Below the pieces are notes generated by a model, which made no database searches, was not told the DNA's origin, and saw nothing but the letters and a program-made list of their open reading frames with translations. A stretch of DNA of 63,864 nt, counting the filler, from Reclinomonas americana ATCC 50394 (Eukaryota): NCBI GenBank assembly GCA_048213135.1. It is 7 parts of 3 records of this genome, joined end to end, with 100 filler letters (N's around TTAATTAATTAA, not from the genome) between each part and the next. Parts side by side here need not be neighbours in the genome. Positions count along the whole stretch, not along the records: positions 1 to 9,249 come from PS015299.1; positions 9,350 to 27,726 come from PS015299.1; positions 27,827 to 34,998 come from PS015300.1; positions 35,099 to 45,052 come from PS015300.1; positions 45,153 to 52,435 come from PS015300.1; positions 52,536 to 62,618 come from PS015300.1; 1 more part is not named here. One strand, 5' to 3'. The first letter of the stretch is position 1. Each line of letters opens with the position of its first letter. The translations under genes and the position numbers were made by a program. Below, piece by piece: positions 1-62,335 of this stretch.

Positions 1-374
1 GGAAAGGGAGATGAAGAGGGAGAGGGAAAGGGGGAGGGAGAGGGATGAAGGGACGAAGGGAAATGGAGAGGGAAAGGGGGAGGAAGAGGGAGAGGGAAAG
101 GGAGAGGGAGAGGGAGAGGGAGAGGGAGAGGGAGAGGGAAAGGGAGAGGGAGAGGGATAAGGAGAGGGAGAGGGTGAGGGAGTGAGGGAAGAGGGTGAGG
201 GAGTGAGGGAAGAGGGAGAGGGAGAAGGATGAGGGAGGGGCAGTGGGAGTGGGAGAGTGAGGGCGTGTGTGTGTGCGTTTGTGTGTGCGTGTGTGTCTAT
301 ATGTTGGTGCGTGCGTGCGTATGTGTGTGTATGTGTGTGTGTGCATGAGAGAGGGAGGGCATAATTGACGCAAC

Positions 375-13079: not shown

Positions 13080-16000
13080 TTATCTCCGCCCTCCGCTGCG
13101 CTTGATCGGCAAGTCGGGGAAGCGCAGTGGTGTCTTCAGGTAGACAATGGTGCGCGCCACAAAGTCGCCGGAGGCCGGCGCGGCCGCAGATCGCGATCGC
13201 TTGCTGCTACCGGTGCTCTCTTCCGCCGCCGCCGCCGCCTCATCCTCCTCGGTGGCGTCTGGCATCGGTTCGTCGCCGTCGAGAATCACAATCTTGCCAC
13301 TGCGAGACGCACACGCAGAGTTAGCACACTGGACGACGACAACATACAGCGGTGTGCCAACAACGCAACGATGTCCGGCTCACACGCGCGGCTTCCTGCG
13401 CGCATCCGAGCTCGCGGAAATGCGTCAACAGTTGCGCCCGACCAATTCCCAAATCGTCAATCAGCGGCGTCGGGTCCAATCGGAAGTCGGGCGACGTGGA
13501 GAGCGCCAGCACCAGGGCGTAGTTGAGCATTTTCAGCTTTTTCGCTTCGCTCCACGAGTAGCTGGCCGGTGTCGGCCCCTCGGCCGGTCGCAGCTCCATG
13601 AAATCGGTCTTCAGGCGCTCGTACACCTCTGGCGGCGCAAACAACATCTGCGACAATCTCTTATGGTCCTCCTCGTTGCGCAGCACCTTGCGGTGCGCCT
13701 TGTACAGTTTCAGGAGCATGCGGCAGTAGACCAGGATCGACAGCACGAATTCAACATTGTCGGGAGCGGCGACGAGAGAGTCGAGCACGCTGAGCACAAA
13801 GAACGACTCCTTCTTCTCCCGCCTCGCCTCAGCCAGCTGCTCTGGTTCGGACACCAGGCGGAAGAGGTGGCGTGTGTCGAGGGCGTTCCACTGTTCCGTG
13901 GTCAAAATGCTGCCGAGAGGGTACACGTCGGCGGGGGTCTCCGCGTCCAGGTTGAAGGGGGGGAGGAGGGGGCGGTCTGTAAAGGGGAAGGGGGTGGGAA
14001 AGGGAAAGGGTGAGGGGGTAAAAAGGGAAAGGGTGAGGTAGGGGAAGGGAGATTGGGGAAAGGGGGAAGGGGGAAGGGAGATAGGGGAAGGGATAAATGG
14101 AAAGGAACAGGAGTATAGTGGAGGCTTGAGGGCTGCGAGTTGAGGGTGGAGGATTGAGAGTTGACTGTGCAGGGTGGAAGGAGACGGGAGTGGGAAGAGG
14201 AGGGTAAAGCGTGGAAGGGGTATTGTGGAGGGTTGATGGTGGAGGATTGACAGTTGTGCGTGCAGGGAGGACAGGGGAGTGGAAAGAGGTGGGTAAAATG
14301 TGGAAGGGGTATAGTGGAGGGTTGAGGGTGGAGGATTGAGAGTTGAGCGTGCCGGTGGTAGGACAAGGGAGTGGAAAGAGGTGAGTAAAGCGTGGAAGGA
14401 GTATCGTGGAGGGTTGAGGATGGAGGATTGAGAGTGGGGTGGAAGGACAACGGAGTGGAAAGAGGAGGGTAAAGCGTGGAAGGGTATAGCGGAGGGTTGA
14501 GGATGGAGGATTGAGAGTGGGGTGGAAGGACAAGGGAGTGGAAAGAGGAGGGTAAAATGTGGAAGGTGGTGGGTGCAGGGCTGAAGATGGAAGCAGATGG
14601 AGTGAAGTGGGTAGGGTGGCGGTAAAGTGTGAGGGCAAAATGTGGAAGGTGATGGGTGGAGGATGGAGGAAGGATGGTGGTGAGAAGAGATATAGCAGTT
14701 GGGTGCGGAGAGAGAGGACACTGATCAATAGATATCAATCAAAACCGGAATGATGCAACTGCAGAGATGAGACTGAGGGCGAATATAGAGACAAGCGAGA
14801 GAGGGTGGGGGCTGAGGGTAGATCAGAATGGAGAGGCAGGATGTGAATTATGCAGAGTGCACAGCAACACGATGTGAAGAGAAAGTGATACCACGGCACT
14901 GTGCAAAGACTACAGGATAAGCACAAGCAGCGACACTGTTGCTAGATAGAGAGGGGTTTCCCTGATGCGTCTGTCTGATGACGAAAGGGAGGAGAAGAGA
15001 TTGAGGACACAGACAGAGAGAAGACAGAGACACGTCCTCTGTCAAAGGAATAAACAACCATCGAACTCTCTCATGCCCCTTTCCCAATCGGCCACTCACC
15101 CACTTCCACCGACACAGTGGCAGCGCGCGCCACCCTACCCAGCAACTCCGATCGCTGCGCCACCAGGCCCATCACATGACTCACGTCGCCCGTGCGCTCG
15201 TACGACACCTGATACTCGGCATTTGCCTTGATTGAGTTGCGCTTTTGCACGCTGCCAAACTCGCCATGTAGCCTCTCCATGTCCTGGTGGAATGCAGTCA
15301 GATTGCCTGTGTGCACTGGCAGATGGAGATTGAGCAAAAAAACAACAGACCTTGTAGCGGCCCTCGGGGTTGTGCGAGTTGGCGGTGAGGAGGGTGTCAC
15401 GACGCGCGCCTTCGCGACGCACCGTTTGCATCATGCGCACGGGTTCGGGGACTTCGACGACGCGGACTTTGTTGGTTTCGGGGTCGTAGAGGCCGACGGC
15501 GTACCTGCATATAGGGGAAGGGGTGGTGAGGAAAGGAGAGGAGGGAGGGGAAGGGAGGCGAAGGGATGGGATGAGAGGGGAAGAGAGGAATGGATGGGAA
15601 GCGAAGCGATGGGAGGAAAGGTGAGGGGAAGGGAATGGAAGGAAAGGAAGAGAGGGAGGGAAGAGAGGGGAAGAGACTAGAGGTGATGAGAGGAGAGGAG
15701 ACAGGAGAGAATGGAAGGCAAGAGAGACAATGAGAAGGGAAGGGAAAAGAAGAGGAGCGAAATGAGAAAACGCTTGAAGAGCACACGATTGAGAGTGCAC
15801 CACGACTACATCTCAACCGGGCCAATACAACAAGTGGTGCAAGTAACAAAGGAAGAGACTCCGTCTGTCTCTTTCAAAGAGTGAGAAAGTGTCTCTGAGA
15901 AAGAGAAGCTCTCTGAAAGAGAAGAGCAGAGAAGAATAGAGACTTAGCCATACTCAGGGCGAATGGCGAAAAGGGAGCACATCGTCTTCATGACAGAGAC

Positions 16001-27076: not shown

Positions 27077-27556
27077 ATGGAGGAGAACCTGGAAAAGCTG
27101 GCTTCCCGCGGTAAATCATCATTCGTGTTCAGAGTGTGTTTCACTCTCTCTCTCTCTCTCGCTCTTGCTCTCTCGTGCTCTCTTGTTGTCTCTGTTTGCC
27201 GCTGTTCTTTGCTGAGCTGCGTCGCTCGACAGACATCAAGGATCGACTGCATGCGGTGACTGAGTTGGAGGAGTCATTGCGGGAGGAGGCCAATCTCGAT
27301 GTTGCGTCACTCACTCTCGCCACACAGACGCTCTTCACATACATGTGCATGCATCACTGTTCGTGTGATGAGAGAGAAAGAGAGAGAGGGAAAAGAGGGC
27401 ACTGACAGGGGTGTTGCGTCATGTCGTGGTGGGACATAGCCTCTCTCTCGCGCGCTCTTGCCCACTCTCTCACGCGCGCACAGACGTCGCTGGTGGGTCC
27501 CATCACCGCCGCGCTCACCAATGTCCTGGGTGATAACAACTTCAAGGTCGCGCAAG
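27077..27556 (+). CDS. CLASP: CLASP (CLIP-associated protein) N-terminal TOG domain, 5' fragment
   Basis: Spliced MEENLEKLASR|DIKDRLHAVTELEESLREEANLD|TSLVGPITAALTNVLGDNNFKVAQ resembles the start of CLASP TOG1 (D.K.R...V..L...L...L.D.NF.V.Q); truncated by the linker at 27771. Confidence 0.8.
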
Positions 27557-27704: not shown

Positions 27705-28124
27705 TGTGTACATCACGAGGTGCTCTNNNNNNNNNNNNNNNNNNNNNNNNNNNNNNNNNNNNNNNNNNNNTTAATTAATTAANNNNNNNNNNNNNNNNNN
27801 NNNNNNNNNNNNNNNNNNNNNNNNNNAGCAGAAGGGTCTCTCTCTCTCTCACACACACACACCAACGGTCGCGACAATCACAATGTGCGCTCGCAAAACC
27901 CAACGCCACAAGTGTCGCCGGTGAAACCTGGTGCCCGAAACCAGGGCTCCACACAGCAACATGAATGCGGGGCGTCGACAGCGAGACACATCCGGTGCGT
28001 CTCCGAAGGCGGCGGAAAGACATCACAAAGAGAGGAGAGGGGAAAAATGGACAACGTACATGAATTCCGAGTGGCATAGGTCGCGAAACAATCATACAGA
28101 AGACCAAGGAGAAGAGGCTCGTCA

Positions 28125-30602: not shown

Positions 30603-30647
<45 letters not shown>

Positions 30648-41077: not shown

Positions 41078-42587
41078 ATGCAAGCGCCGGCCATTCAGCT
41101 TGACGTGCTGGAGACGGTGCTTGGCGACAGTCGCCTGCACCTGCCTCCTCTTGAGCGCGACACCGGCAATGCCACCTCGTCGTCATCTCTGTCCGCGGGT
41201 GCGCGACCCTCAAAACGCTCTCCCACCGCCGCCGCTGCCGCCACTGCTGGAGGTTCTCCTGTGCCACTAACGGGCATCTCACTGAGTCCACTCTCTGCGG
41301 GCGGCAGCGGCGACATGATCACGGTGATTTCACCGTCAGACCGTGATCGTGTGGGAAGGCGAGAGGCTGCTTCTGGTGCTCCTCCGCCTCGCAGACCAGC
41401 ACGCTCAGGTACGCGCGTGCCTCTCCCTCCTCTCTCTCTCTCTCTCTCACTCTCCACTCCACTCCTCTTGCGGTGTTCCATTCAACATTGATGGGCGAGT
41501 CGCGCAGTGTCGCCCATGGATCACTTGCGTTCGTTAATGGCGGCGGCGCCTTCATCATCCTCCGGCAAGATGCCACCGCGCAGTGAGCACACAAGTCCGC
41601 GGAATGAGCGAGGTGGTGGTGGCGGTGGTGGTGGTGCGGTGGGTGGCAAGCCGGGAGCGCTGCGTTCAGGCCGAGTGGCGCCCATGCCGACTGCGATTGA
41701 AGACGAAACGCGGGTTTCGTACCTCGTGTGCTGCTGGCAAAGTATATGGGGGTTTTTCCTCACACTTGCTGGTTGGTGGGCAGTTTACGCTGGAGGCCGC
41801 GGCACAGAAACTGGTGGTGGCACCGTCGATGGAGATGCATGGTCTGAGCGATCAGGATACGCGGGCAGTGGTGGACCGGCGTGCCTACTTGCGGTCGCTG
41901 CGCACGATTGAAAGCGACGCCACCATGTCCTCCATGTATCTCGACGCACCACGTCTGCCGCTGTCGCTGTCGTCGTCCGACTCGTCACGAGGGTCGTCAC
42001 CACGGCGGGCTGGTCAGCAGGGCGACGTGAAGATGATCAAGGGCGGCTACACGGCACACGCCGACGACCTCGGTATGCGGCTGTGGGAGCGTGTGGAGAA
42101 GCGCAAGAACGGCAATCTCCCGGCTCCCGGTGGCGCCGGCAAGTCTGCGCCTTCGCCGCCCACAGAATCGTCACTGTTGTTGCGTTGCGCCGTCCCCGTG
42201 TCGCCCGCATCACTGGAGGGGAAAGCTAATATATCTGCAGTGCTGCTACTCGACTGGCGCCAGTGGACTGCCCAGCAGGCTCGCCGACAGCGACCACGGA
42301 GGTCAGCCCTGTGGCCGGTCGTCGATCACGGACACGCTCACCGCAACCCATGCCGGTGGGTCGTCGATCGCCTTCGTCCTCAACAACAACAGGAGCAACC
42401 GCGACGCAGCAGCAGCAACAACAACAACTGGTCCAGCCCGCCGGCTCATGTTGCGTTGCTTGACGTGCCGTGCGGCCGCTTGTTGCCGGTAGCTCACCTT
42501 TATTGCCTCCCCAGTGTACGCTGCTCGACGTGCCCCCCTGGCCGAAGTCGACGAACGGTGATCGTCCGGCGCGCCTGCACTGCTTAA
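41078..42587 (+). CDS. Hypothetical S/P/G-rich protein (multi-exon)
   Basis: GC3-rich exons at ~41078-41408, 41507-41712, 41784-42175 and 42263-42449 bounded by GT/AG; no family recognised. Confidence 0.45.
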
Positions 42588-42670: not shown

Positions 42671-45040
42671 AGGAGTGTGGAAGAGGGGGAGGGGCGAGAG
42701 TGCGAACCGCGGCCGATGCGTCGCGCAGTCGGGCGATCACTGGCAGTGGGATCGAGTAGCTTTGTGCTGGAGACTCGATCTCTGACGTGTCGAAGCAGAC
42801 GATGATGCACCCGTCGCTGATGAACAGCAGTGGGCGAGAGAGCGCCTTGGCCACGAGATTGAGACGCTGTGATTGATTGATGAGTGAGTGAGCGAGAATC
42901 ATCACGCTGCGAGTGGATGCGTGAGTTGTCCATGCGCATGTGCTTGCGCACCCACAGTGGTGGTCGTGGTGAATTGGGGCCGAGATGTGAGGCGTACACA
43001 CGATTGCAGGCCAAGCCAATGGTGTCAACAGCACGTTCCGATCGCCACGGTCGTTGAATGTGACGCGACCACAAGGGCGTCGCTCCCCCACCAGTTCGCA
43101 TTTCGATTCTCCCACCCTTACACTTGATTACGCANNNNNNNNNNNNNNNNNNNNNNNNNNNNNNNNNNNNNNNNNNNNNNNNNNNNNNNNNNNNNNNNNN
43201 NNNNNNNNNNNNNNNNNNNNNNNNNNNNNNNNNNNNNNNNNNNNNNNNNNNNNNNNNNNNNNNNNNNNNNNNNNNNNNNNNNNNNNNNNNNNNNNNNNNN
43301 NNNNNNNNNNNNNNNNNNNNNNNNNNNNNNNNNNNNNNNNNNNNNNNNNNNNNNNNNNNNNNNNNNNNNNNNNNNNNNNNNNNNNNNNNNNNNNNNNNNN
43401 NNNNNNNNNNNNNNNNNNNNNNNNNNNNNNNNNNNNNNNNNNNNNNNNNNNNNNNNNNNNNNNNNNNNNNNNNNNNNNNNNNNNNNNNNNNNNNNNNNNN
43501 NNNNNNNNNNNNNNNNNNNNNNNNNNNNNNNNNNNNNNNNNNNNNNNNNNNNNNNNNNNNNNNNNNNNNNNNNNNNNNNNNNTGCAAAGGGGAAAGAGTA
43601 GAGGCAACCGCTCACGCAACGCGGCAACATCATCGACCGCATGCGGTCCACATACATGCACGCCAGCTCCCGCAACTCGTGGTCCAACAGGAACAAGTCT
43701 GTGGGTGGCAAGTGAGGGCATGCTCAACCTTTGGGCAATCAGCGTGGAAATCATCACGCAACGCGATTTCGAGCAACACAGAACGAGGTTCTCCGGATCG
43801 ACACCATGTGATGGCGCAGCTCTGAGCGACTCAGTGAGGGGCAAGTCATTTCCCGTCAAACTCGATGAGTCGAGTACGCAACTCGGGCGGAGGTGGAGAA
43901 GCAGCGGCGGCGGAGCCCGACGCGACTCCGTCAACAACAACAGAGCTCGAATCATCAGCAGCCGGTATTCTCTCTCGCTGTGATCCACTGCCATCACTGT
44001 CGCCGTCCTCGCCATCCGCTCTGCCGTCAACTTGCCCAGCTCCATCCTCCCTCATTTCGCCGTCCACCTCCTCATCTTCCTCACCATCATCGTCGTCGTC
44101 GTCCGCATCACCGTCCGCGCGATCGCCATCAGCCACCCGTCCACCACCTGCATCGCCGTCATCACTTTCCTCCTCCTCTTCCTCCTCCTCACCGCTCTCC
44201 ACGCCATCTTCGATCGAGTCGTCGAGCTCTTCCTCGCGGAGCATCGCCGGAGTACGCAACGCGTGTGAGGTGAGGAGACCGTTGATCACCACGAGCCAGA
44301 ATCGCTGATGCGCACTGCAACACGAGTGCTGTCAGTCAACTGCACGCATACGTGTCGACGCTGGCACGCACCGTGGTATCCGCATGATGCTGCTTCGTTT
44401 CAACCATCGCACAGACCACAACCTGCAGTGCAGTGCACTCGACTGCTCAGAAACAAACGCGCTTGAAAACGAAATACAGAGCGATCGCGAACCATTCGGT
44501 GGATACGGTGGCCGACACCACACAGGCGTTGCTGCGATCAGCAGTCTTCCACACTCGCACCGAGCTGTCGATGCTGCAGGAGACCAAGAAGGAACCGTCC
44601 GGCAGCACGTCTGCGAGGGGAGTGAGCGGCAACGCACACTCCTTTATCACAGAAGAAGCACAGACACACCGATGCATGGCACGTTATGAGCGTGACCGCG
44701 CAACACGCTGCCGCGTTGTGTGCCGCTCACAAGATCGTGACAAGTGATAGTCCACTCGTTCGAGCCGGCGGCCACGAACGCCCCAACCGGACTGCAGCAC
44801 AGCGACCAGGCCGACTTGGGCTCTCTGTTGTGCGACACTCGCGATGAGACAACGGCACTGTGTGGGACGCGATCCCACGAAAAGCCCCTCGCAACTGGAC
44901 AACCACGGGCGCAGCTGTCTCGAGACTGCCGATGAAATGAATGCTGACAAGACCCGCATCGTCGGCCACCATCAGAATCTCCTCGCCGTGCACGAAGCCC
45001 GTGCGCAGATAGTTGACATCCTGTCACACACCGCCACGTG
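42671..45040 (-). CDS. WD40-type protein, CRT10-like, with an internal acidic tract (gapped, exon order possibly scrambled)
   Basis: VNYLRTGFVHGEEILMVADDAGLVSIH, KSAWSLCCSP..FVAAGSNEWTIT, LRGHAHNVPCI, LPDGSFLVSCSIDSSVRVW; D/E tract at 43990-44250. Confidence 0.55.
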
Positions 45041-45212
45041 AGAATCGCATAGNNNNNNNNNNNNNNNNNNNNNNNNNNNNNNNNNNNNNNNNNNNNTTAA
45101 TTAATTAANNNNNNNNNNNNNNNNNNNNNNNNNNNNNNNNNNNNNNNNNNNNCGGGGAAGGAATGAACATGACACTGACACTGCCAAACGAATAGGCGGT
45201 AACCTACGGGTG

Positions 45213-45269: not shown

Positions 45270-47606
45270 AACAGACGAGCGAGCCCACGAAACACACCGA
45301 CGACGGTGAAGAAGAGCGAGCCGGTGCGGTTCTGTACATCGACCTCGTCGTAGCCTAGCCGCAGGAACACCAGACCGAGGCTGTGCAATAGCAAATGATT
45401 GAGCATGAGCCGAGCCGGTGGTGATCTTCACAGCGCGAGTGCACGCAACAGCAGCGAGATGAACAGGTACTGCATGATTGTGCCCTTGAAGTGCAGCGGT
45501 TCACTGTGTGGGTGCGGAGATGAGACAATGGAGAAGTGAGGGAGAAAGGCGTAGGCGCACGCGCGACGCAACCGCCAAGCATCCAGGAAGCCGCGACGGA
45601 CCAGAATCGAGTACTGGTTGATGAAATTGGCGCGCGACTTTTTCAGCTTGTTGAGGTCCACCTCCTTTGGAGCTGGTGGTGCTTCCACGGAGCGCACATA
45701 GTACGGCGAATCGCGGAACGACTGGGCGAGCTGTCGCGCTGTGGATGTGGCATGCTCGAATTGATTTATCGGCATGTCGTCCAACTCGTTGTGCTGCTCA
45801 TGTCGATGCTCGCCGTGAACCACGGCCATGAGGTACTCCACTGGGTTCTCGAGGTCCGGCATTGGGTAGCCTGGATTTATGGAGGGGGCAGCATGCGCAG
45901 TGAGTGCGACAAATGCAGAGGGGAGCTGCGAAAAGGGGAGGGGAATGGAGTACCGAGCGCGGCAAAGTAGTCTGCCACCTCTGGCTGCGGGCCGAAGTAC
46001 ATGGTTTCACTGCGTGCCAGCAACACGTAATTGTCGAAGAGCGAGAAAATGTCGGCACTCGGCTGGTGAATGGTGAGAACAACTGTGCCTGTGGTGGTGC
46101 ACGAGATAGATGAGGAACGGGCGCACGGCGGCGACAGCGGCGGCGGCGGAACACACGAAACGATTCTTGTGGCGCGCCAGCTGCTGCAGCGTCTCCACAA
46201 TGCTGAGGGCGGTGAAGGAATCGAGACCCTACATCGCACGGGGGGAGTGAGGGACGGGGGAGGATGTTCAGGAGTAGCAATCGTAGCTGACCGAAGTCTG
46301 TTCATGATGGGGGAGGAACAGTGAGTGGAGTGAATGGAAACAAGAGAATAAAACGGGGGGAGCGTCACGCAACAGGCTCATCCAAGAACACCAACGCCGG
46401 CTCCGACAACAGCTCCATGCCAATGGCACTGTGTTGAAGAGAGAGAGAAATCAGAGAAAAGTGCAAGACCATAACCAGGTGGAGTGTGTGGCGCGACGCA
46501 ACAGACGCTTGCGTTCACCACCAGAGAGACCGCCCTGAATGCCACTGTTGGCCGCGTCCACTCCCACATAACTGCAGCGCAGTTGATTAATTCATACGTG
46601 CCACTGCGGCAACAAATAGCCATTAGCAACGCACCCCGTCACTGTGTCGGCGCACGACTGCAAGCCGAGCTCCTCAATAATGCCGGCCACCTGCGATACA
46701 GTCAGCGCCGAATCCGCATCCAGTGTGAGAAAATCGACTCGACGCAACTCGTTCCTCCTTCTCCTTCTTTGACACCGAGTCGGCGAGTTCGAGATCGGCC
46801 GCAAACCGCAGTGCCTCGCGTGGTGTCTGTGTGCCAACCAGTCAGTGAAAGGAAACATGAAGAGCGGTCGTGTGCGCACGAACCAGAGTGCCCATGAGCA
46901 CGTCTTCCTGCGACACAAAGCCCGCCACACGATGCAACTCCGTCGGCGACACTTGCACACCGTTGAGGCGAATGGCGCCCGAAAGCTGGCCTGCACGATG
47001 ACGACGACAAAAGTTTTTCAGGCCACCGAATGACCACCGACACACTGATCAGCACCGACCTTTGCCTTCCAGCTGACCCGCCAGCACCTTCATCAGCGAC
47101 GTCTTGCCTGTAGTGGAGTGTCACCACACACAAGAAGAAAAACGAGCGCGAGTGTCTAGGGGGAAGAGCAAACCAACCTGCACCACTCGGTCCAGTAATG
47201 GCAGTGATCGTTCCTGGCTGACACACACCCGACACGTTGCGCAGAATGTACTTGGTGGGCTCCGCACTGCCCTCGGGCATCGGCACGCCCAAGCACACGT
47301 CTTCCCATTCCAACTGGCGAATGAACGCATCGTCGTCATGATTGTGTCACAAAAGAGAATTTCGCGACCGGAGTCTTGTGTTACCTGCACACGCGCGACA
47401 GTGGCGCTGCTCATGAGGAAGCTCGAGGACATGCGTCCACGTGAGCTGCTGTGACGCATGAGTCGGCCACCCGAGGGAGTTCTCGCGACTGGCGTCACTT
47501 CTCCATCGCCACCAATGACAGCAACAGGTCCACTGTGTGCGGGATCGCCCAGCTGCACAGGCTCCGGTGCGAAGCGCGTGCTGCGAGTCGAGTGCGTCGC
47601 AGCCAT
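45270..47606 (-). CDS. ABCG (White-like) transporter, NBD plus start of the TMD (3' truncated at a linker)
   Basis: ILRNVSG, Walker A GPSGAG|KTSL, GFVSQEDVLMGTL, signature LSGGERKR, VFLDEP|TS|GLDSFTA, TIHQPS, NPVEYL, QYSILVRRGFLDAWR. Confidence 0.95.
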
Positions 47607-48005: not shown

Positions 48006-48937
48006 ATGGCGACCCGCGGACGTGCTGGTGCGACAGGCAACAAGTTCCGGTGAGTATATAGCGGCGTGTCGTGATGAACAGGGCAATGATGGAATCAGTG
48101 GGAGGAAGAAGAGAGGAAAGGGGGGAGTGCTGCTGCACATGAATGTCCAGTGAGACATGCGCCCCTCGCCTGCCCACCCACTGTCGTGTGCGTGTGTGCG
48201 TGTGTGTGTCTGTACAGAGTTGCTCTCGGTCTGCCAGTGGCTGCAGTCATGAACTGCGCCGGTGAGTGCTTACTCTGTGTGTGTGCGCGCGTCTTGTGAG
48301 TGTGCATGTCGATCGCTCACGCCGCCTTTCCCTCTCTGTGTCTCTGTGTGCAGACAACACTGGTGCGCGCAACCTCTACATCATTGCCGTGAAGTGCATC
48401 AAGGGCCGCTTGAACCGCCTCCCGGCCGCCTCACCTGTTGCGTCTTTCTCTCTCTCTCTCATGTGATTGATTCGTGTGCCAGAGCCACTCACTCACCACT
48501 CGCACGCGTGTGTGTTGCTGTGTTGCGTAGGGCGACATGATTGTGTGCTCGGTCAAGAAGGGCAAGCCCGATCTCCGTAAGAAGGGTGCGCTGGTTGTGC
48601 ATGTCTCGAGAAGAGTGCGCCATGTGCTGCCACCCGCCCGCTCACTCTCTCCTCCTCAGTCATGTTGGGCGTGGTCATCCGCCAGCGCAAGTCGTGGCGC
48701 CGGTTCGATGGCACCACCATCTACTTTGAGGGTGTGTATGAAATCGCTTGCCTATGTCCTTGTCGTGTTGAGCAGAGTCATGACGTACCCTCCCCCGCTT
48801 CGTGTCACGCAGACAATGCTGGTGTGATTGTCAACAACAAGGGTGAGATGAAGGGGTCGGCCATCACTGGCCCGGTGGCGAAGGAGTGCGCCGAGATCTG
48901 GCCGCGTATCGCTGCCAACTCCAGCGCTGTCGTGTAA
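48006..48937 (+). CDS. RPL23: 60S ribosomal protein L23 (uL14), 6 exons
   Basis: [40 protein letters not shown]...[39 protein letters not shown]...[37 protein letters not shown]. Confidence 0.98.
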
Positions 48938-49149: not shown

Positions 49150-50179
49150 TCAACGCCCCGTAGCAATGCTGTTCATGGTCTCCTTGAGCCACTGGATGAA
49201 CGGCTTGCTGCTTTCGGGATTGGGAGCGAGTGACGATGACGGCGCCGCCGATCCACTGCCCTCGCCCTCGCCCGGCGGTGCAGCGTATCGTTGCAGAATG
49301 CGATCCTTGAGCTTTTGCAGTGTCCTTGCGTCTGTGAGGCACGCACACACACAAAGTGAGACTTTTGCAGAGGCAGCCATAAGTGGGGCACGGACGGACA
49401 AACCAGTGGAACCAAAGCCAAGCCGATAGCTGTCGTCGGGTTTGCTGCGCAGCGCCCGTCGACTCCTCTTGGCCGACTCGGGCATATCGGGGTCGTCCTC
49501 GTGCTCCTTGAGCCAGCGTGCGTACGCCTTTTGATCGAGCTTCTCATTGGCGGCATCCTCGACCGCATCGCGCACAAAGTGGAAGATGGAGCGCAGATAG
49601 ACGAGAATGCTCATGAAGATGTTCTGGTTGCGCTCCAGATGCCTCTCGTAGACGTGCGCAATGGCCACGGTGCCTTGCGGCGACACCAGTGGATGCCGCA
49701 CATCGCGCGTCAACATGGTCAGCGACGGACACTTGTACGGGTACTCGTCGGGGAACTCCAGGCGGAACTTGTACGCGCCACCCGCAAATGGACCCGCGCG
49801 CACAAACAGAATGCCATCCCACACTATGCACACAGGTGAGAGAGGGGTGAGAGAAGGGTGAGAGAGAGAGAGGGAGAGCAAGGGAGAGCGACGCACCAAA
49901 TGGACGCGTTGCCGATGGAATGACAAAGATGCCGCGTGGCTTGCGCTCCTTGATCTTCTTACTGCGCGTGTGCACACACACCGTGTATGTGAGTGAATGA
50001 GATGGACAGAGAGAGAGCACACCCAAGCACAAACTCAACTACTCAATGAGCAACCGCAATGACGACAACGAGTGCGCCACCGCAGGCGGCAAACCGGCGA
50101 TCGAGTGTGTTGATGGCACACTGCCGGCACCAGGTGGTGAGGCGACTCCACTGCCGGCTGCTCCTTGCTTCGCCGCCAT
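49150..50179 (-). CDS. AKTIP: AKTIP/FTS (crossbronx)-like inactive ubiquitin-conjugating enzyme variant
   Basis: LLIE|YKKIKERKPRGIFVIPS...|VWDGILFVRAGPFAGGAYKFRLEFPDEYP..CP...HPLVSPQG...ILVYLRSIF; UBC fold with no catalytic Cys. Confidence 0.75.
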
Positions 50180-50266: not shown

Positions 50267-51427
50267 ATGGTGAGTGCTTATACACCCTCACACGCACTCT
50301 GCGTATCCGTGAGTGCATGGGGGGGCGAGGGGAGGGCGGTGAGGTAATGAACGAACACTGACGCGCGCGCGCTCGCGGATATCTCTTTCTCTCTCTGCGC
50401 AGTTGGGCGCACCGACCGTCCTTGCGCGTCGCCTCGAGTCCACCAACTCGACCTCGGTGCTTCGCGATGACCTGGAGGGCGCCGGCCTGCTCTCACCAGT
50501 CGACCAAGTGCACCTGTCGGAGGAGCAGCGACGCGGCATGCGTCGCCTCTTTGTCAAGCTGCTGCTCATCAACTGGCTGCAGACGGCCTACCTCGCCTGC
50601 GCGGTCAGTGTCACGCAGCACGCGTTTGGTGGTCACATCGCCACCTGGCTGCGCAACTGCGTGCCTCTGCGCGCCTCGCTGCTGGCCTTCATTCTCGTCG
50701 TGCCCTTTTCGTGGTCGTTTGGCTGGGAGAACGGCAAATCGCGATGGGTCACCATTCCGCTCCTCACGCTCTTCCTTGGTGCGTTCGGGGCCTTTGCAGC
50801 GGCGTGGAATGCCACCGAGGGCCATCACGTCATTGAAATGAGTTGCGCTCGTGTGTGAGCGAGTCTCATTGCTCGTTGCTCATTGTGGTGTCGCAGCCTT
50901 GTACTTGGTGCTCATTGTGCACACGTCGGTGCTGGTCACGGTGGTGATCCTCGCTCGCTGGTCGATCGTGGCGCACCTGCCGTCCATTCTCACCCTCGTC
51001 GCCGTGGCCATTATCCTGTGCGTCACCAGCGCCATGGTGATTCAGTTCACGCTGCCGTCGGTTTCCATGTACCCTTCGTGGTCGACGTTTGGCTGGAGCC
51101 TGGCCTTTTCGGTGCTGCTCTCGCTCGGTGTGGTGGAGCTGGCGTGCTTTGTCGGCATGATCAGTGAGCCAGACGAGGTTGATCTGGTGGAAGGTGCGTA
51201 CACGGTGACGAAATCGAAGGGGAAAAAGAGAAGCGAGGAAACTGATTGACCGCGCAGCTGCATTCTTGCCGTGGATCGCTCGCTTCAATATCACCGAGTT
51301 CATCTTCTCGTGCATACGCCTGTGCTGCTTGACGGCCGATGATCCGTACTTTGCGCGCCACCACGCTCGCGAATACTCGCCAGTGCCCGGCTCCGGACGC
51401 AAGCTCGGCACGTCGACGGCCCGATAA
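50267..51427 (+). CDS. Polytopic membrane protein, possibly a divergent Bax inhibitor-1/TMBIM family member
   Basis: First coding exon is the ATG alone; RRGMRRLFVKLLLINWLQ is followed by about 6-7 hydrophobic segments; ends EPDEVDLVE|AAFLPWI...IFSCIRL. Confidence 0.5.
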
Positions 51428-51580: not shown

Positions 51581-54500
51581 ATGTTTGGGAAGAAGAAGGG
51601 CTACTCGCACGAGTACACGCTCACTGTTGAGGGTGTCAGCGGTGAGGCGCATCCGCTGAAACCAAGAAAGCGTGTGTGTGTCGTCCTCATTCGCAGTTGT
51701 CGCCAGGTTTGCCGCAGTATGATGGACAACTGCTGTATGTGCAATGGAAACGCGGTGGAAAGCGCTCAGGCGAGACCAAACCGGTAAGCTTGTGTGTGTG
51801 TGTGTGTGTGTGGCAGCGAGTGGCAAGCGCAGTGTGTGCCTCAAGCGCGTGCGTTTGTCGGGAGATGTCCCATGCCCGCAGCGTGCTCTCTTTCTCCCTT
51901 GCTCTTCTCATTCTCCCTCCTCTCCACCCTTCTCTTCTCCACGCCGTCTACTGGTGCCACCGATGCTATGTGTCTTTGTGTGAGATAATAATGTGATGTA
52001 TCAGTGAGTGTGATGACCGTTTGTGTTCTGGTCTCGGTCATCGCGTGAGAAGTGGGGCATGATTGCGATTGTTTGTGTGTGAGAGTGGACACTGTGCACG
52101 AGCTGTTGTCTTGCATGCGCGACTGTGTGTGTGTGTGGGTCGGTGCATGTCTGGCGTAGAGAGTGATATATATGTGTGAGTTGTCTTGTTTGTCTGCCTG
52201 CGTTTCGTGTGTGTGTGCGCGTGTCTCTTTCACTGTGTATGTGTGTGGTGATGCGTAGCTGAGAATAGCTCTCCTTCTTCTCCTCCTCCTCTTCCTTCTC
52301 CTCGTTCTTCTGTGAGCTCATGGAGTATTATTGTTGGATTGCATCAGCAACAATGCGAGGATGGAGTGTGTCTGTTCAACCAGCGCTTCTCGTTCACCGG
52401 CACGCTCTTCCGCAAGAAGGAGAACGGCCCGTTCGNNNNNNNNNNNNNNNNNNNNNNNNNNNNNNNNNNNNNNNNNNNNTTAATTAATTAANNNNNNNNN
52501 NNNNNNNNNNNNNNNNNNNNNNNNNNNNNNNNNNNCGCCTCGTCGCAGTAATGACGGGCCGGGCGCACTCGACACACTGTATCTATCGTCGTCGACGGCA
52601 GCCGATCCCGACATCACGGGTCCCGAGTGACGATCCCGCGTGCGATTGTCGGTGCCTCCACGTGCTGGCCTGTCGTCGTAGTAATCTGGAGCGAAATAAA
52701 TGTGAGTCGCCCGGCATCACACTGCGTCGTCGACGAAGGGACATGCGCGCACCTGGTGCGTCGAATCCACTGGACGACACGTCGTCACCGTAGCGCGAAT
52801 CAATGTCCTCGGTGGCAGTGTTCACGCTGGGCGCCGTCATGGCCGAGCCTGAGCCCTCGCCGACAAAATGAGGGGCCAGTCGGATGCGCAGCTGTGCCCG
52901 CGCTCCACCACGCACGGCCAGCGTGCGCGAAATCGGCTGGGCGGCGATCTCATTGTTGTCGTGCTCCATGCAGCTGGCGGCGGTGAACTCACTCAAATCC
53001 AAAATACTCTGCCCGAGCTTGTGCCGACGCTGCTTTTGGTCTTGCGTCATGAGATTCAGCTTCAGCTCCTTCTTGTNNNNNNNNNNNNNNNNNNNNCTGG
53101 CGCAGCCGGCAGTCAGACACTGGATGTGGCAGACTCGCCCGTGGGAAGTGCGAGCCGAAGAGGCAACCGTGCGCGGTTCGCGCCGGGCGCCAGTTCCACG
53201 GCTGCGCCCGCAGCCGCGGCGGTCACCGATCCACCGGCCAGACCTAGCGCGCCTGCAGACTCGGGGAGCCGTGGCAACGGGTCGACTGGGACGGCCGTCG
53301 CTGTGGCTTCGGCGCCGGGCAAGTCGCGGACCGCCACCGCAACTGCCACCGCTGTCACTGCAGTGCGTGTTGAGGAGTAGAGGGTTGTGACGCTGTAGCA
53401 GTCGTCTCACACGAGATGTTTCGTTGATGTGCGCAGCCAGCAGCGCCAGCCCCGTCATCGACTGCCAGCACGCTGTCGGCGGATCGGCTATCGGGAGGTG
53501 CGCCATTTGGCGGCGGTGTTTCGGGCGTGCGGGCAAACTCGAGTCCGAGTGCCGACGACGACGATTCGCAAGTTGTGTGTCTCTCAGCGTGTGAGTGGGC
53601 GCGCCTCACGTGTGCCAACCATCGTGCATTCTCGTGCAGGATGACGCCGATTTTGTGGACGAGCTGGTGTACTTGCAGGCACCCGCCACAGATCATGGAA
53701 CGGTTCGTTGTTCGCGCCTGCTGGGATGCGGCTCGCTTGCGTTGTTGTGTGTTTTGTTGACGTGTGTGCGTGCATGCGTAGCCAATGGCCGGTCAGCGAA
53801 TTGTGGACGGTGTGCATGAGCGCTGTGTGTTTGCGACGTCTTCAAGGCGCGCGCTTGCGTTCCTCGATCGGCTCCTGAAGGCCATGGCACAATTCATCAA
53901 GGTGTGCTGATATTCGTCGCAGCCATGCCGTGCTTCTCTGTGACTCACTTTGGTGTCATTGTCTTGCGCAGGCGTATGATGAGTACGATCAGATTCGCTT
54001 GTTCTGGCTGGCTTCGTGTGGCTTTATCGTCGCCGAGTACGCAGTCAAGTACCCGGCGGAGCTCAGTCCGGCCACTGTTGCGTACCCCCACTCAGCGAGT
54101 GAGCACCGCAGTTGTCATTCACCACTGTTTCCCTTTCACCACGCAGGATGCTGGCTCGGCGGGAGCCGTTGGCACAGCGGCGAGCAATGGAAGGGGTGCG
54201 GGGCGTGCGAGGACTGTGGTGCCCACCGCGGCAAAAGTGCAGTCGTATTACACGGTGGCTGCGGAGGACAGCGGAGCACCTGGTCTGCGCGGACCACAGC
54301 TCGGCCACGCCGCGTGGACGGCGACTCACCACTTTAACAAGGTTTCCCGAGCGATTGCGCACTGCGCGTGTTCGGCATTCTTAACGGCGTGCTGCGTGCA
54401 GTTGTTGGAGTCGGAGAGGAGAAACGACAGCGAGTCGACGGTGCTGGAGTTGGCGTTTGCGCTTGCCGTGCAGAATATCTACGCATGGTGCTGTGCTTTG

Positions 54501-55508
54501 TGATGTGACGAATGTGCTGGTCCGTGCATGTCACTCACTCACGTCTCCACCGCAGGGTGTACGCATCGTCGCTGCTGAGCGTGTACCGCCGCATCGACGA
54601 CATGCTGTTGCATGATGTGTTCGACTACACGCAGTTTGGGTCGGCGCTGAAAAAGTTGCGCCCGAGCTGGCTCGTGTACGTTCCTTTGGGAGAGCAGCAG
54701 CTAAACAACGAGGGAATAGGGGTTCTGGGCGCGATCCGATGGATGGCATGGTGCGCCTGTTGGAGAAGCAGAATGCGGCATTGGTGGCAGCTGGTACGTA
54801 CGCACAGCTTCTTCTTCTTCTTCTTCTTCCAAATATCACCGTCCTCATCCACCGACTACCGTAGGTTCCAGTGTCGCGTTGCGCTCCTCGATGATTGGCC
54901 AGCTGCTCCACTTTGTGTCTTGCCGAGTGGTCAACACGGTGTTGCAGAACGAGGAGTACATGCAGACGCAGACGGCGCTAAAGGTGTCGTGTTTCACCCT
55001 CGCGCACACACACTCTCCTCGTCACTCATGTGCTCTTGTTGCAGCTGAAAATGGGCCTCTCCAAGCTCTACCAGTTCTTGTCGTCGTCGACGATTGGACT
55101 CGCCCACTCACTGTTGCGTTTGTCTGTCTGCATGTGTGAATCTTCAGTGGCTGACATCGTGACTGCACGCGCAGCGACGGCAAGTTGCGCCCGATTGCCA
55201 GCACCGCCGACGTGCTGCTCATCTCCAAGGAGCACCTGGTGGAGGACGACACGCGTGGCGAAGTGTGCGGCGAAGGTGGCCTTACTCCTGCGCAGCTGCT
55301 GCATCTCGTCAAGAACTTCAAGCCCGACGAGTACGAGGACATTGCCGTGGTGCGCCGTGCTCATTCGGAACTCGACCGCAAGATCGGTGCGGTGCCCGGC
55401 TCTCCAGGCTTCCCCATTATCCCGGGAGCCTCGGCGCGTGGTCGTTTCCAGCTGCCGCAGCAGCTGCTGCTCGATGCCGACACAATACCACTGCCGCCCA
55501 CCGCCTAA
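51581..55508 (+). CDS. NT-C2 (EEIG1/EHBP1-type) plus Dilute (DIL) domain protein; segment 52536-53076 is assembled inverted
   Basis: NT-C2: YTLTVEGVS|GLPQYDGQLLYVQWKRGGKRSGETKP|...FNQRFSFTGTLFRKK.GPF|DKKELKLNL...KLGQSILDLSEF. DIL: QLLHFVSCRVVNTVL..LK|LKMGLSKLYQF..LRPIASTADVLLISK...VC..LTPAQLLHLVKNFKPDEY. Confidence 0.8.
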
Positions 55509-55715: not shown

Positions 55716-57014
55716 ATGTTTCCGCGCGCCACTCTCCTCACCCGCCTGTTGCGGTCGCCACACGATGCACAGCCGAGTGCTACCAATGCACACGGTGCGC
55801 CTCTTGTCTCTCCAGCCCATGATGAATCACCGTCACTTTGCTGACTGGACCGATTGCATGCAGAGAGAGTGATGGCCAACGCGGCAGTGGAGGAGGACGA
55901 GGTGGGCGAAGGAGATGAGGAGGAGGGTCTGATCACACTCCAAAAGGCTCTGCAGCAGTCGACGGCGAGTGAGGCGACGCCGAAAGTTGTGGATCGGCGA
56001 CTCATTGGCTTCCCGCGCACCGTGGCCAACGCCACGCTCTTCTCGCGCGTCATGGAGCAGGTGTACCAGGAGGAGAAGCAAGTCATTCCCGACTCGGGTT
56101 CGTTAGTTTCATCAGTCTTCGTGCATCCCTCTTTCTCTCCTTCCACCCACGCCTGCCTCAAACCCGCAGACTTGGTGGAGATGCCCAAGGGCGAGCCTCC
56201 GTCGCTCACCGAGTTGTTTGGCGACGAGTTCCCGTCGGGTCACGTGTGCGTCGTCGGCCCCACCGGATCCGGCAAGAGTACGATCGTCCGCGGTATCCTG
56301 TGTGCGCTCTGCGACCGTCACACGCTGTCGATCTACTCGCTGGAGTTTCCCGTGGAGGTCAACCTCAACACGCACGGTCTCTTTCACGTGTGCCAGATCG
56401 ACATGTTTCAGCAAGTGGCCGGTCGGCAGCGATCGCTGCACGAGGTCGCCAACGCGCTTCTGCATCACGATCCCGACCTGCTGTACTTTGGCGAGCTGCG
56501 CAACAAGACCGACTTTGAGACGGCGACGAGTGTGGCGCTGAGTGGAGTGGCGTGCATCAGCACGGGCCATGCGCACTCGCCCATGGACCTGTTGGAGCGT
56601 TTGCGCGCGATGAACATTGACCTGTCGACGCAGTTTCGTGCCTTTCGCTGCATCGTCGGCGTGAAGCGCGTGCCCATTCTGTGCGACGTGTGCAAGCGCA
56701 CGGTGGTGTTCCAGGGTTCGCCGTCGGATAATCGCGCTCTCCGACTCTTCTTCATGTATCGCACGGTGACGTTGAGTCGGGTGCGTCGACGGCAGACGCA
56801 GCCTCGTGTGTGCATGCCGGGCACGGGCACGAACTGTTCGGCGTGCACCGGTGGCTACACGCACAATCACACCATCTACGAGTTCCTGCGCATCCACCCG
56901 ACAGACACGCTGGAGTCGCTGCGGCGCAATCACACGTACACGACGGAGGAGACGTTGCTGGACCTCATCATGCAGGGCAAGGTCAATCCACAGTATCTGG
57001 AGAGCCTGCTTTGA
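55716..57014 (+). CDS. gspE: GspE/PilB-family secretion ATPase, nuclear-encoded with a putative mitochondrial presequence (exons 55716-55794, 55864-56097, 56170-57014; ~385 aa)
   Basis: Walker A GPTGSGKST; Asp box SLEFPVE; Walker B HHDPDLLYFGELRN; His box SGVACISTGHA; LLERL; tetracysteine LCDVC...CSAC followed by GGY....IYEFL; two GT-AG introns (69 and 72 nt); N-terminus MFPRATLLTRLLRS. Confidence 0.9.
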
Positions 57015-57044
57015 GAGGTTATTAAGTTTTCCCTTCACTGCGAT

Positions 57045-59478: not shown

Positions 59479-62335
59479 TCAGTAACGTCGCCGGTACCGC
59501 GAAGGAGGTGGGACTTGCGGTTCCGGTGAGGTTGTCCGCAGCACGAGTCCAGGTGGTGGGTGATTCCTGCCCAATGCCTGTGCGACAGAACAGTGAGTAT
59601 CCGGGAAGAGTCCGCAGAAANNNNNNNNNNNNNNNNNNNNNNNNNNNNNNNNNNNNNNNNNNNNNNNNNNNNNNNNNNNNNNNNNNNNNNNNNNNNNNNN
59701 NNNNNNNNNNNNNNNNNNNNNNNNNNNNNNNNNNNNNNNNNNNNNNNNNNNNNNNNNNNNNNNNNNNNNNNNNNNNNNNNNNNNNNNNNNNNNNNNNNNN
59801 NNNNNNNNNNNNNNNNNNNNNNNNNNNNNNNNNNNNNNNNNNNNNNNNNNNNNNNNNNNNNNNNNNNNNNNNNNNNNNNNNNNNNNNNNNNNNNNNNNNN
59901 NNNNNNNNNNNNNNNNNNNNNNNNNNNNNNNNNNNNNNNNNNNNNNNNNNNNNNNNNNNNNNNNNNNNNNNNNNNNNNNNNNNTTTTTTCCCCGCCAGTG
60001 GGAGGCGGCGTCGGTCCTCCACCGACCAATGGTAATGGTGGCGGCGGTGGCGGTGGTGTTGGTGGCGGTGCGCGTGGCGGTGGCGGCGGTGGTGTGGGTG
60101 GCGGTGGCGGAGGTGGCGGTGGTGGCGGAGGTGGCGGTGGCGGCGGCGGTGGCGGTGGTGGTTCTAATCAAGGCGGTGGTGTGCGACAATTCGGTGTACA
60201 TCAGCCACACATGGGTCACGTGCCACTCGGCCCGACCTCCACAGCCCCCGCACCGGCAGCGGCCGTGGGCGCTGTTCTCGGCACCTCCTTGCAACAGAAC
60301 GCAGTTGCGTGTGCTTGAGCGNNNNNNNNNNNNNNNNNNNNNNNNNNNNNNNNNNNNNNNNNNNNNNNNNNNNNNNNNNNNNNNNNNNNNNNNNNNNNNN
60401 NNNNNNNNNNNNNNNNNNNNNNNNNNGAAAAAAGCACAACGTGAGAACAGTGAAGAGAACGAGAGAGGGGGTCAATGCGACAGTCGACTCACCTCTTCTC
60501 ATGTCTCGCGAGGCCGGCACAGGCTTACTGGGCTTGCCCTTGTTCGACTCGTGGATGAACGGGAACTGGAACTCTTCTCGTTTGGGTACACCATTCGGCT
60601 GCGCCACAGCAGAGGGTCAGACACGGCTCGCTCACCAAGCCGATCTTCGTTTGCATACCTTTAACCGCTTCTTGTTCATCTCGTCGGCACCTGGATCGCC
60701 CGACAGCAACGGCAGTGCCACCAACCGCGGATACGCCTGTCTTGGTGTGCGCATGTTCACCGGCAAGTTCTCCTGACTGCCTCCGTGCGACAGTGAGCCA
60801 GCTAATGACATGCCTCCGCCGCCGCCGCCGCCGCCACCACCGTAGCCACCAGTGCCGCTCAGAGCCGACGGCGGACCCATATTTGACATTCCACCACCGA
60901 TTCCGTTAATGCTGAGAGACGACACGCCACCGCCCATACCAAGGTGATATGACGCGGGGATGGCGGTGAGTGACATGGATACCGGCATGGTCATGCTGGT
61001 CTCGCGCAGTGTGCTCGCATGCGACGTCGGTGCTGGTGGGCCTGTGTGATCCAAGTGCAGCACGTCACTCTCCGTTCCATGAGACATGTACTGTGAAAGC
61101 AAGTGAGTGAGTGAGTGAGTGAGTCGATGAGTTGCACGACGATGACGCAACGTCGGCCAGCGACGGCTCCGAGGGTGTTGGTGAGGTGGGTCGCGAACGA
61201 AACGCCTTCCACGGATTAGAGAAGCCGGTGTGGGTCGATGGCGATGTCTTCGGCGGCACCAGGTGCTCCGCCTCCAAGAGCATTTGAGGTCCTGTATTGA
61301 CATCCGCATTCTGAATACAGCGACAGCAATACGAAATTCTAGTGCGTGCGAATACCAGTACCTGTTCGCAACGGCATTGGTTGCTCTTCCAGATCGTCGC
61401 CGCCGGCGCCACCGCCACCTCCGCCCCCTGACGAGTCGCCAATGCCACCATTGCTGCCGGATGCCGTGGCTTGCCGTTCGTCGTCGTCGTACCCCCGCGA
61501 CCTGCGCGCCACGTGACGCAGAGGTTGAGAGACTCGCGCACGCACGCACATACACTCTACTCCACAAATGGCAGGCTCGCACCTGTAGTCGCCGTCTTCC
61601 CTCTTGCGCTCGTGCTTCTTCGAGAGGCGTTTCCGTCGCAGAGCACTAGGATTCTCATCTGCCGACGCCGTCAACTCTCGTAGCTCCTCCTCCATCTCCC
61701 CAATGAACTCCTCGTCAAACAACGGATGCTGCAGCAGCTGCGCACACGTCCACCGCTCCGACGGTTCGTGGTGCAAACATGCCTGCCAAAAAAACATCCC
61801 CTGTGAGAGAAGAGAATCCACACCATGTTTTTTTGGACGACGGGAGAAGATTGCACCTTGAGAAACGACAACACATCGGGGGCAACGCTGGGGAATTTGA
61901 CTTCCAGCGGTTCTAGTTGAGTGGGTAGCGGTATTGTGACCCCTTGATAAAGGGGATTTTGCCGAAAGATCTCCAGATGCCTCTGCGAGAGTTGGCCTGC
62001 ACATCGCGAGCGTGAGTGAGTCACGTTCACGAGTACCACCACCGCCGCCCAATATGCGCGTACCGCAGCACTTGAGGATCAGTGACAACTGATCCAAATC
62101 CGAGTCACCGGGAAATAGTGGCAGTCCGTTGAGACACTCGGCGAACAGGCAGCCCACCGCCCACACATCCACCGGTTTCCCGTATTCCACGTCGCCCACC
62201 AGCAATTCCGGCGCCCGGTACCACCGCGTGGCGACGTAGTCGGTGTACTTGGCCCCCGCCCCGCCCAGCGTCCGTGCAAAGCCAAAGTCGCACACCTTCA
62301 GCAGCCCGTTCTTGCTGATCAGAATGTTCTCCGGC
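59479..62335 (-). CDS. CDKL: CDKL-family kinase (5' exons missing; long low-complexity C-terminus; 3' end uncertain)
   Basis: [21 protein letters not shown]...[47 protein letters not shown], with a TDY activation loop. Confidence 0.9.

Follow-up and report, generated by a model that had tools for sequence, protein, structure and literature searches.

Sequence-based evidence for a second, discrete class of 5' splice site, GUUGCGU, in modelled introns of Reclinomonas americana

The introns in this stretch of Reclinomonas americana ATCC 50394 DNA raise the question of whether they are cut at one kind of 5' splice site (donor) or at two. The window, that is, the whole stretch of DNA analysed here, comprises 63,864 bases, of which 4,863 are N in many gaps, and its G+C content is about 57% with N excluded. 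Its genes contain short introns at high density, about 72 nucleotides (nt) long at the median. The original prediction held that a large share of these introns start with GTTGCGT, GTTGCGC, or GTTGAGT, that the exon before them mostly ends in a base other than G, and that the motif is the main consensus G/GTGCGT displaced by one base (the slash marks the cut). In this study, GTTGCGY donors were designated as class B and ordinary GTRMGY donors as class A. All 20 coordinates listed in that prediction carried the motif on the strand given, as GTTGCGT in 17 cases, GTTGCGC in two (39504 and 50842), and GTTGAGT in one (50039). The last exon base was T at 11, A at five, and C at three of these sites, and G only at 45572.

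GTTGCGT was found 32 times in the window on both strands together, compared to 9.17 +/- 3.11 expected, and none of 100 dinucleotide-preserving shuffles reached 32. Among the xxTGCGT heptamers it was as frequent as the ordinary GGTGCGT (30), and the counts for GTNGCGT were 32 with T, 15 with C, 12 with G, and 1 with A. In 17 regions of known or modelled coding strand (45.5 kb), 25 copies of GTTGCGT lay in the sense orientation and two in the antisense orientation (p = 5.6e-6). GTTGCGC (11 sense, 13 antisense) and GTTGAGT (two against three) showed no such bias in the same regions, so that the signal is essentially the T-ending GTTGCGT. The first of the three predicted motifs was thus borne out, and the other two are marginal members of the class.

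The use of the motif as a donor was examined with a dynamic-programming gene finder that scored codon usage, a learned acceptor matrix, and intron length, and that allowed GT...AG introns only. In a blind (donor-agnostic) model, every GT received an equal donor score, and 13 Pfam-guided regions yielded 71 distinct introns that were no longer than 300 nt and had no N at the donor. GTTGCGY started 15 of these introns (21%), compared to 0.96 expected from the product of the single-position base frequencies (binomial p = 4e-14). It was the commonest donor heptamer in the blind model, and GTTGCG the commonest hexamer (16, versus six for GTGCGT and four for GTGAGT). A donor-aware rerun with a two-class donor mixture produced 92 introns in 17 regions, and GTTGCGY started 18 of them against 0.91 expected. 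The blind model picked 14 of the 20 listed sites, and the donor-aware model added 45572 and 55113. Class-B donors that had not been listed also emerged from the models, at 45449, at 42179, and at 31050 in a duplicated segment. When each site was scored as a GT between a coding exon and a good acceptor followed by a coding exon, 13 of the 32 GTTGCGT copies reached at least the 95th percentile of 500 random GT sites, where 1.6 were expected. The base before the cut also differed between the classes, G preceding none of 15 class-B donors and 11 of 12 GTRMGY donors (Fisher p = 9e-7). These results support a second donor class that is discrete and not the tail of one position-independent model, as the original prediction had proposed. 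By the gene models, class B would serve roughly one fifth of the introns, in line with the large share that had been claimed.

A GC dinucleotide lies 3 nt inside every class-B donor (GTT/GCGT). Cutting there always keeps the reading frame and would add one residue to the protein, so that frame cannot distinguish the two cuts. Homologues fixed the cut to the base at five sites, listed below with a sixth that is not independent of the third.

2267-2273, minus strand: donor T/GTTGCGT of the RNB exonuclease gene, intron 2200-2273, found by the blind model and placed by Pfam RNB numbering
11169-12488, plus strand: whole 1,320-nt intron of the phosphomannose isomerase gene, starting with T/GTTGCGT at 11169
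29272-29342, minus strand: whole 71-nt intron in the Not1 domain of CNOT1, donor T/GTTGCGT at 29342
31044-31050, minus strand: the same donor in a duplicated copy of the CNOT1 segment
36429-36506, minus strand: whole 78-nt intron of CNOT1, donor T/GTTGCGT at 36506, found by the blind model
48437-48530, plus strand: whole 94-nt third intron of RPL23/uL14, donor T/GTTGCGT at 48437

At 2273, Pfam RNB positions 12-36 reach the last codon of the exon and the next exon covers positions 42-62; a 13-nt microexon (2187-2199, minus strand) and the split codons supply the five residues at positions 37-41. Numbered by PDB chain 1pmi_A, the coding sequence before 11169 stops at residue 287 and resumes after the intron at residue 289, with one split codon between them. 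The Pfam Not1 profile runs from position 63 to position 64 across the junction at 29342, and this junction was gap-free in all 11 CNOT1 homologues. The 24 residues surrounding it were equal in length in six of the 11, one residue longer in four, and one shorter in one; these differences sit a few residues upstream of the junction. The alignment across 36506 was gap-free in the four homologues covering that site. In RPL23/uL14, exon 3 aligns to residues 20-44 of PDB chain 6gz3_AV, its end is extrapolated to residue 46, and exon 4 begins at residue 47; the same continuity of 46 and 47 was found in the other uL14 chains compared. As the homologues leave no room for an extra residue, a GC-AG donor at +3 was ruled out at 2273, 11169, 29342, 36506, and 48437.

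The isomerase intron is filled by low-complexity sequence of the GA/GAG type that is open in several frames, and this 1,320-nt GA-rich repeat intron is why 11169 was missed by the gene model. Intron size therefore appears bimodal, and introns such as this 1.3-kb one escape a short-intron model. The RPL23 intron ends in ...TGTGTTGCGTAG (48522-48528, plus strand), so that the 8-mer TGTTGCGT stands at both of its ends; no such terminal repeat was seen in the other class-B introns inspected. The duplicated CNOT1 segments, 28932-29857 and 30640-31563, are 97.7% identical and flank a gap of 741 N. Two ordinary introns account for 14 of the 23 differences between them, and the 71-nt GTTGCGT intron for none. 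The two segments are probably either two haplotypes or a recent duplication.

We compared the 17 class-B introns that contain no N with 18 class-A introns. In class B, position +7 was T in 15 and C in two, and position +8 was C in seven, T in five, G in three, and A in two. The last exon base (-1) was T in 11, A in three, C in two, and G in one, and the base before it (-2) was C in eight, A in four, T in three, and G in two. In class A, -1 was G in 16 of 18. G at -1 of class B (1/17) was as rare as G at -2 of class A (3/18), which fits a displacement of one base. The exon ends were thus non-G as predicted, and they were more specific than had been stated, as T stood at -1 in 11 of the 18 class-B donors of the donor-aware set. 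Elsewhere the two classes were alike. Length was 72.5 nt in class A and 71 nt in class B, and GC content was 0.53 and 0.55, respectively. A branch-like CTNAY motif was present in the last 45 nt of 14 of 18 class-A and 14 of 17 class-B introns, at a median of 20.5 nt from the 3' end in both. Class-B acceptors were CAG in 14 and TAG in three, and those of class A were similar. The agreement in length, GC content, branch motif, and acceptor implies the same 3' machinery for both classes. All-against-all blastn of the introns without N returned only microsatellites and the duplicated CNOT1 copies. As class-B introns share no sequence beyond these, they do not appear to be copies of a mobile, introner-like element. 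U12-type introns were also rejected, because the donor is unlike the minor-class motif and the 3' signals equal those of the ordinary introns in the window. These results suggest that class-B introns belong to the U2-type GT-AG kind but start at a 5' splice site of their own, discrete type, which reads (non-G, mostly U)/GUUGCGU.

Eukaryotic donors normally have a purine at +3. In the window as a whole, T was found at +3 in 40 of the 92 modelled donors. These include donors of the GTTCAG, GTTGCT, GTTCCG, GTTTCGT, and GTTTTGT types, 15 of 22 of which follow an exon-final G. Three were fixed by homologues, namely GTTCAG at 35841, GTTGCT at 28595, and GTTCCG at 2186, each after G.

How could one spliceosome use both donors? 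The ordinary donor G-G-UGCGU and the class-B donor G-U-UGCGU differ by one base (G to U). With respect to the UGCGU core that both contain, this change would place the sole GU, where the cut is made, upstream by one base. We tentatively prefer, with slightly more doubt than confidence, an explanation in which one RNA partner reads both classes in a one-base-shifted register, with a U1 5' end adapted to GC. The same partner, U1 first and U6 later, would bind the UGCGU core in both classes. In class B, the +1 G of the intron would take the slot that the exon's -1 G occupies in ordinary donors; the register would be shifted by one base, or equivalently would bulge one U, and the catalytic core would cut at the only GU available. 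For stable pairing, the U1 5' end of this organism would have to match GCG better than the standard end does. As the first G of the intron would fill the -1 slot, an exon-final G would no longer be needed. One partner in one register would thus explain the identical core, the exact one-base offset, and the lost exon-final G. The analysis shows that class B exists, that it sits where introns begin, that it depends on the -1 base, and that its 3' signals are ordinary; both the identity of this partner and its register are inferred.

Several observations weigh against this explanation. Duplexes between each donor (-3 to +9) and the conserved 11-nt U1 5' end were folded with ViennaRNA, which ignores pseudouridines and the U1 proteins, and this U1 end is a stand-in that may not be the organism's own. 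With it, the 19 class-B sites had a median of +0.5 kcal/mol and no stable register. The 20 GTRMGY donors reached a median of -6.5, the 55 remaining modelled donors -4.7, and a sample of 600 random GT sites -2.2. Class B thus pairs with standard U1 worse than random GT sites do, in every register. In standard U1, the base opposite the near-invariant C at +5 would be a pseudouridine. A hypothetical GC-matched U1 gave class B only -6.2, compared to -5.1 for random GT sites. A shift also does not predict the preference for T at -1 (11/18 in the donor-aware set and 11/17 among the introns without N), which has no counterpart at -2 of class A, where T stood in 4/18. In addition, the junctions were derived from genomic sequence, 13 of the 18 class-B donors by gene models, and the candidate at 31702 fits its homologues better with one residue more. 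These results indicate that standard U1 in a shifted register is not enough to explain class B. The mammalian-style shifted or bulged pairing that had been invoked also gives no account of the invariant G, C, G, and T at +4 to +7.

The same folding bears on a reading in which a dedicated second U1-type snRNA (small nuclear RNA), or a U1 paralogue, has a 5' end complementary to (U)GUUGCGU and reads class B, while ordinary U1 reads G/GUGCGU and G/GUGAGU, so that two recognition particles would feed one spliceosome. The heptamer is near-invariant from +1 to +7, and with the T at -1 it offers eight informative positions, as expected for continuous pairing. A hypothetical 5' end fully complementary to UGUUGCGU gave class B -11.7 kcal/mol and random GT sites -4.1, which separates the two far better than the standard or the GC-matched end does; the T at -1 would form the eighth base pair, which would explain its preference. 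Variant U1 snRNAs reportedly exist in humans. However, few RNA sequences are as strongly conserved as the U1 5' end, and the UGCGU core common to both classes is more simply explained by one partner. No gene for U1, U6, or any other snRNA was found in the window by Rfam at gathering scores or at E <= 0.5, where only sub-threshold miRNA-like (microRNA-like) and snoRNA-like (small nucleolar RNA-like) matches appeared. We consider a dedicated second U1 rather unlikely, but given the poor predicted pairing of class B to the conserved U1 end, a re-tuned or second U1-like RNA is a serious competitor. The same modest probability is given to the broader claim of two donor-recognition RNAs, in which ordinary U1 and either a second U1-type snRNA or a re-tuned U1 end complementary to UGUUGCGU would together operate, the latter committing about one fifth of the introns to the major spliceosome. 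If this were true, introns could be defined in a third way, in addition to those that use U1 and U11.

It is also conceivable that the GU is a weak, essentially U1-independent donor and that the spliceosome is recruited through UGCGU and the U before it, either by a protein that binds these bases or because they serve as an intronic enhancer; the likeness to the consensus would then be partly coincidence. Class B has no predicted pairing to standard U1, the T at -1 gives a UGU start that a sequence-specific RNA-binding protein might read, and the donors at 35841, 28595, and 2186 show that poor intron-side matches are tolerated after a -1 G. Against it, the class-B core equals the ordinary core over five bases at a displacement of exactly one, and no candidate factor is known; this reading seems improbable. 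The least probable account, to which we give very little weight, is an artefact in which the junctions were mis-modelled, the true cut being the GC 3 nt downstream or another site, and the enrichment is unrelated to splicing. Most junctions do rest on gene models, which failed elsewhere (a donor was modelled at 28974 where homologues put it at 28995), the extra residue at 31702 would suit a GC donor, and frame logic alone leaves that alternative at every site. Against this stand the homologue numbering at the five anchored sites, the 25 to 2 sense bias, the 13 of 32 copies in the top 5% of the donor-likeness score, and the ordinary branch and acceptor signals at the usual distance. For the five anchored sites, an artefact is largely refuted by the alignments.

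The explanation by one partner in a shifted register has precedents. According to PMC4856993, experiments in human cells have established both the shifted and the +2/+3-bulged U1 register, and the validated non-canonical registers together make up an estimated 1.5% of human 5' splice sites. In the shifted (+1) register of mammals (Roca and Krainer 2009, via PMC4856993), as summarized there, the consensus is likewise displaced by one base with U at +2 and +3, the cut is made at GU, and the +1 G of the intron replaces the -1 G of the exon opposite U1. The sequence here has this form, GTTGCGT against G/GTGCGT, with G at -1 in none of the 15 class-B donors of the blind set and one of the 18 of the donor-aware set. 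The pairing does not, as human shifted sites gain pairing to standard U1 and class-B sites have the positive median given above with the stand-in end. In addition, the register is rare in humans, whereas one heptamer accounts for about 20% of the modelled introns here, and in the sections of that source consulted, the human register is described without a preference for T at -1. The +2/+3 bulge (Roca et al. 2012; Tan et al. 2016, PMC4856993) shares the GUU start, a looped U, and downstream pairing to U1; in the same excerpts, 68 human sites were predicted and 54 remained after curation. It was rejected as a candidate register because it keeps the pair between the -1 G and C9 of U1, and G is nearly absent at -1 of class B.

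U12-type introns resemble class B as a second discrete class with a long, near-invariant donor motif beside ordinary introns. They differ in that motif, and class B shares its branch and acceptor signals with ordinary introns and amounts to about 20%, compared to 0.36% for U12-type introns in human in the portion of PMC4856993 consulted. For GC-rich Mamiellophyceae, the available part of Verhelst et al. 2013 (PMC3879977) describes an AG/GTGCGT donor consensus and a CTGAC-type branch motif, so that the main consensus G/GTGCGT and the branch motif are the same as here. These algae are intron-poor outside an outlier chromosome whose introns are AT-rich and lack conserved signals, unlike the introns here at 53-55% GC, and their branch motif lies 43-52 nt from the 3' end instead of about 20 nt; that part of the paper mentions no GTTGCGT class. 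No description of GTTGCGT or GUUGCGU as a splice signal, or of a shifted or bulged register class in protists or intron-rich species, was found in the literature searched, whose scope did not include subscription journals. Class B would thus be a known but rare register used as a major mode, with features that the known cases lack: an invariant core, T at -1, and no fit to standard U1.

The remaining sites, listed or newly modelled, are as follows.

46298-46373, minus strand: ABCG intron with donor T/GTTGCGT directly after Walker B (...LDEP), by motif alignment
46496-46502, minus strand: ABCG donor T/GTTGCGT in phase 2, by the blind model and frame
46742-46748, minus strand: ABCG donor A/GTTGCGT, blind model only, 95th percentile
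45443-45449, minus strand: unlisted ABCG donor T/GTTGCGT, blind model, 97th percentile
45566-45572, minus strand: ambiguous ABCG candidate G/GTTGCGT, donor-aware model only
13363-13369, minus strand: donor C/GTTGCGT of the RNA polymerase I A49 gene, blind model, 98th percentile
32083-32089, minus strand: putative CNOT1 donor T/GTTGCGT, the only GT that in-frame stops allow from -30 to +6 nt
31696-31702, minus strand: CNOT1 candidate C/GTTGCGT, blind model, its intron entering an N gap
39504-39510, plus strand: donor A/GTTGCGC of a weakly GH16-like gene, blind model only
50842-50848, plus strand: donor A/GTTGCGC of a gene without Pfam match, blind model, with an in-frame stop 14 nt past the donor
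55113-55119, plus strand: donor T/GTTGCGT upstream of a weak DIL-domain exon, donor-aware model, 99th percentile
54077-54083, plus strand: doubtful candidate donor T/GTTGCGTAC, blind model, 86th percentile
61145-61151, minus strand: donor C/GTTGCGT of a protein kinase (CDKL-like) gene, blind model
27301-27307, plus strand: candidate donor T/GTTGCGT, best acceptor 27483, 98th percentile, open exons on both sides
50033-50039, minus strand: candidate A/GTTGAGT of a UQ_con (UEV-like) gene, from an early gene-finder run with a weak codon model
368-374, minus strand: listed candidate A/GTTGCGT, with no usable acceptor before the window end
42179-42185, plus strand: unlisted candidate donor T/GTTGCGT, donor-aware model only, 83rd percentile

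The ABCG gene is the richest in these sites. ABCG2 (6eti_A) aligns through P212 up to 46373, and reading through the donor gives a mismatch at T213. The exon runs to ...DEP and the next long one opens with GLDS, which implies a microexon of 6 nt (46292-46297, minus strand) that would supply the two residues between them. The donor at 46502 lies in what we take to be the ABC signature motif (...SGGERKRL/AIG...), judging by the motif spacing. A PDB search with the 22-residue signature exon upstream of it returned no match, so that 46502 is not anchored by numbering, and a search for homologous proteins with two short ABCG exons also returned none. At 45572, the sole case after G, there is a competing in-frame donor, GTGCGC at 45560, which lies 12 nt downstream and whose use would lengthen the protein by four residues.

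Elsewhere, the Pfam A49 match extends to within 3 residues of the exon end at 13369. The region around 32089 varies among homologues, and the model at 31702 is one residue shorter than four to five homologues, so that a GC donor at +3 may be used there. The intron at 61151 is 61 nt long and has a CTCAC repeat and a CAG acceptor. The gene at 27301 had no Pfam support. The intron at 50039 is 78 nt long with a plausible junction, and it is the sole GTTGAGT case. Downstream of 374, the sequence is a CA-type repeat. The 166-nt "intron" at 54077 is GC-rich and coding-like; its sense reading scores 9.1 compared to 1.7 for the reverse, and the reverse strand reads G/GTACGCAAC, a canonical G/GTACGC donor. 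Thus, among the sites originally listed as donors, five are fixed to the base, and 374, 54077, 45572, and 31702 are candidates. Of the gene names attached to the listed sites, CLASP and BI-1 have no Pfam support, and the Pfam evidence for GH16 and DIL is weak.

Four copies of the 9-mer GTTGCGTAC are present, at 35423-35431, 43874-43882, 44252-44260, and 54077-54085, and its reverse complement GTACGCAAC itself resembles a canonical donor. At 35431, the real donor is the minus-strand GTACGC; at the other three copies, GTTGCGT obtains the better score. The strand of such sites needs checking before they are counted as class B.

The genes recognized through Pfam were the following.

1-4.7 kb, minus strand: RNB exonuclease gene
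plus strand: phosphomannose isomerase gene
minus strand: RNA polymerase I A49 gene
28-37 kb, minus strand: CNOT1 gene
plus strand: DNA-alkylation repair protein gene
minus strand: WD40 protein gene
45.2-47.3 kb, minus strand: ABCG half-transporter gene
plus strand: RPL23/uL14 gene
minus strand: UQ_con/UEV protein gene
plus strand: T2SSE ATPase gene
minus strand: ankyrin-PH protein gene
minus strand: protein kinase gene

A Pfam scan of 139 mid-size open reading frames returned nothing beyond WD40 and RNB matches. The best identity between CNOT1 and its relatives was 81%, in a very conserved domain, so that the protein collection searched appears to contain no close relative, and a representative-protein search with one CNOT1 exon gave a single weak match. 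As possible sources of the DNA, Andalucia godoyi was rejected because it has few introns, and the outlier chromosome of Mamiellophyceae because its introns are AT-rich and lack signals. The window contains seven 100-base spacers, each made of 44 N, a dodecamer with stops in six frames, and 44 N; six of the seven are at 9250-9349, 27727-27826, 34999-35098, 45053-45152, 52436-52535, and 62619-62718. CNOT1 runs in order across the spacer at 35.0 kb, which indicates that the join there is correct, and the gene models near the spacer at 35.0-35.2 kb carry insertions relative to homologues. At 21854-22019, a stretch of about 150 nt matches several plant miRNA-precursor models on both strands, the best at 40.9 bits compared to a gathering score of 85. 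It is probably a long hairpin or inverted repeat.

One neighbouring gene deserves separate mention. At 55845-57011 (plus strand), an open frame of 389 residues matches Pfam T2SSE (E = 4.6e-23), its protein-atlas neighbours are all bacterial GspE/PulE clusters, and a spliceosomal intron was modelled inside the gene at 56098-56169. PMC8134430 describes a type II secretion system in the mitochondria of heteroloboseans, jakobids, malawimonads, and hemimastigotes, whose ATPase is a short GspE that lacks the N-terminal domain. The gene here recalls that ATPase, which is only a lead, and it may instead come from bacterial transfer or contamination.

Donor recognition by base pairing to the U1 5' end is taken to be nearly universal, and displaced registers to be rare exceptions; their use by about 20% of the introns, as modelled here, would differ from this picture. 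Class B would then offer a natural experiment on what determines the cut site once U1 has bound, on the weight of the -1 G and +1 G pairs, and on the evolvability of the U1 5' end. Annotation would be affected as well, since a gene finder that has learned only one donor matrix would overlook or wrongly place about one intron in five in this genome.

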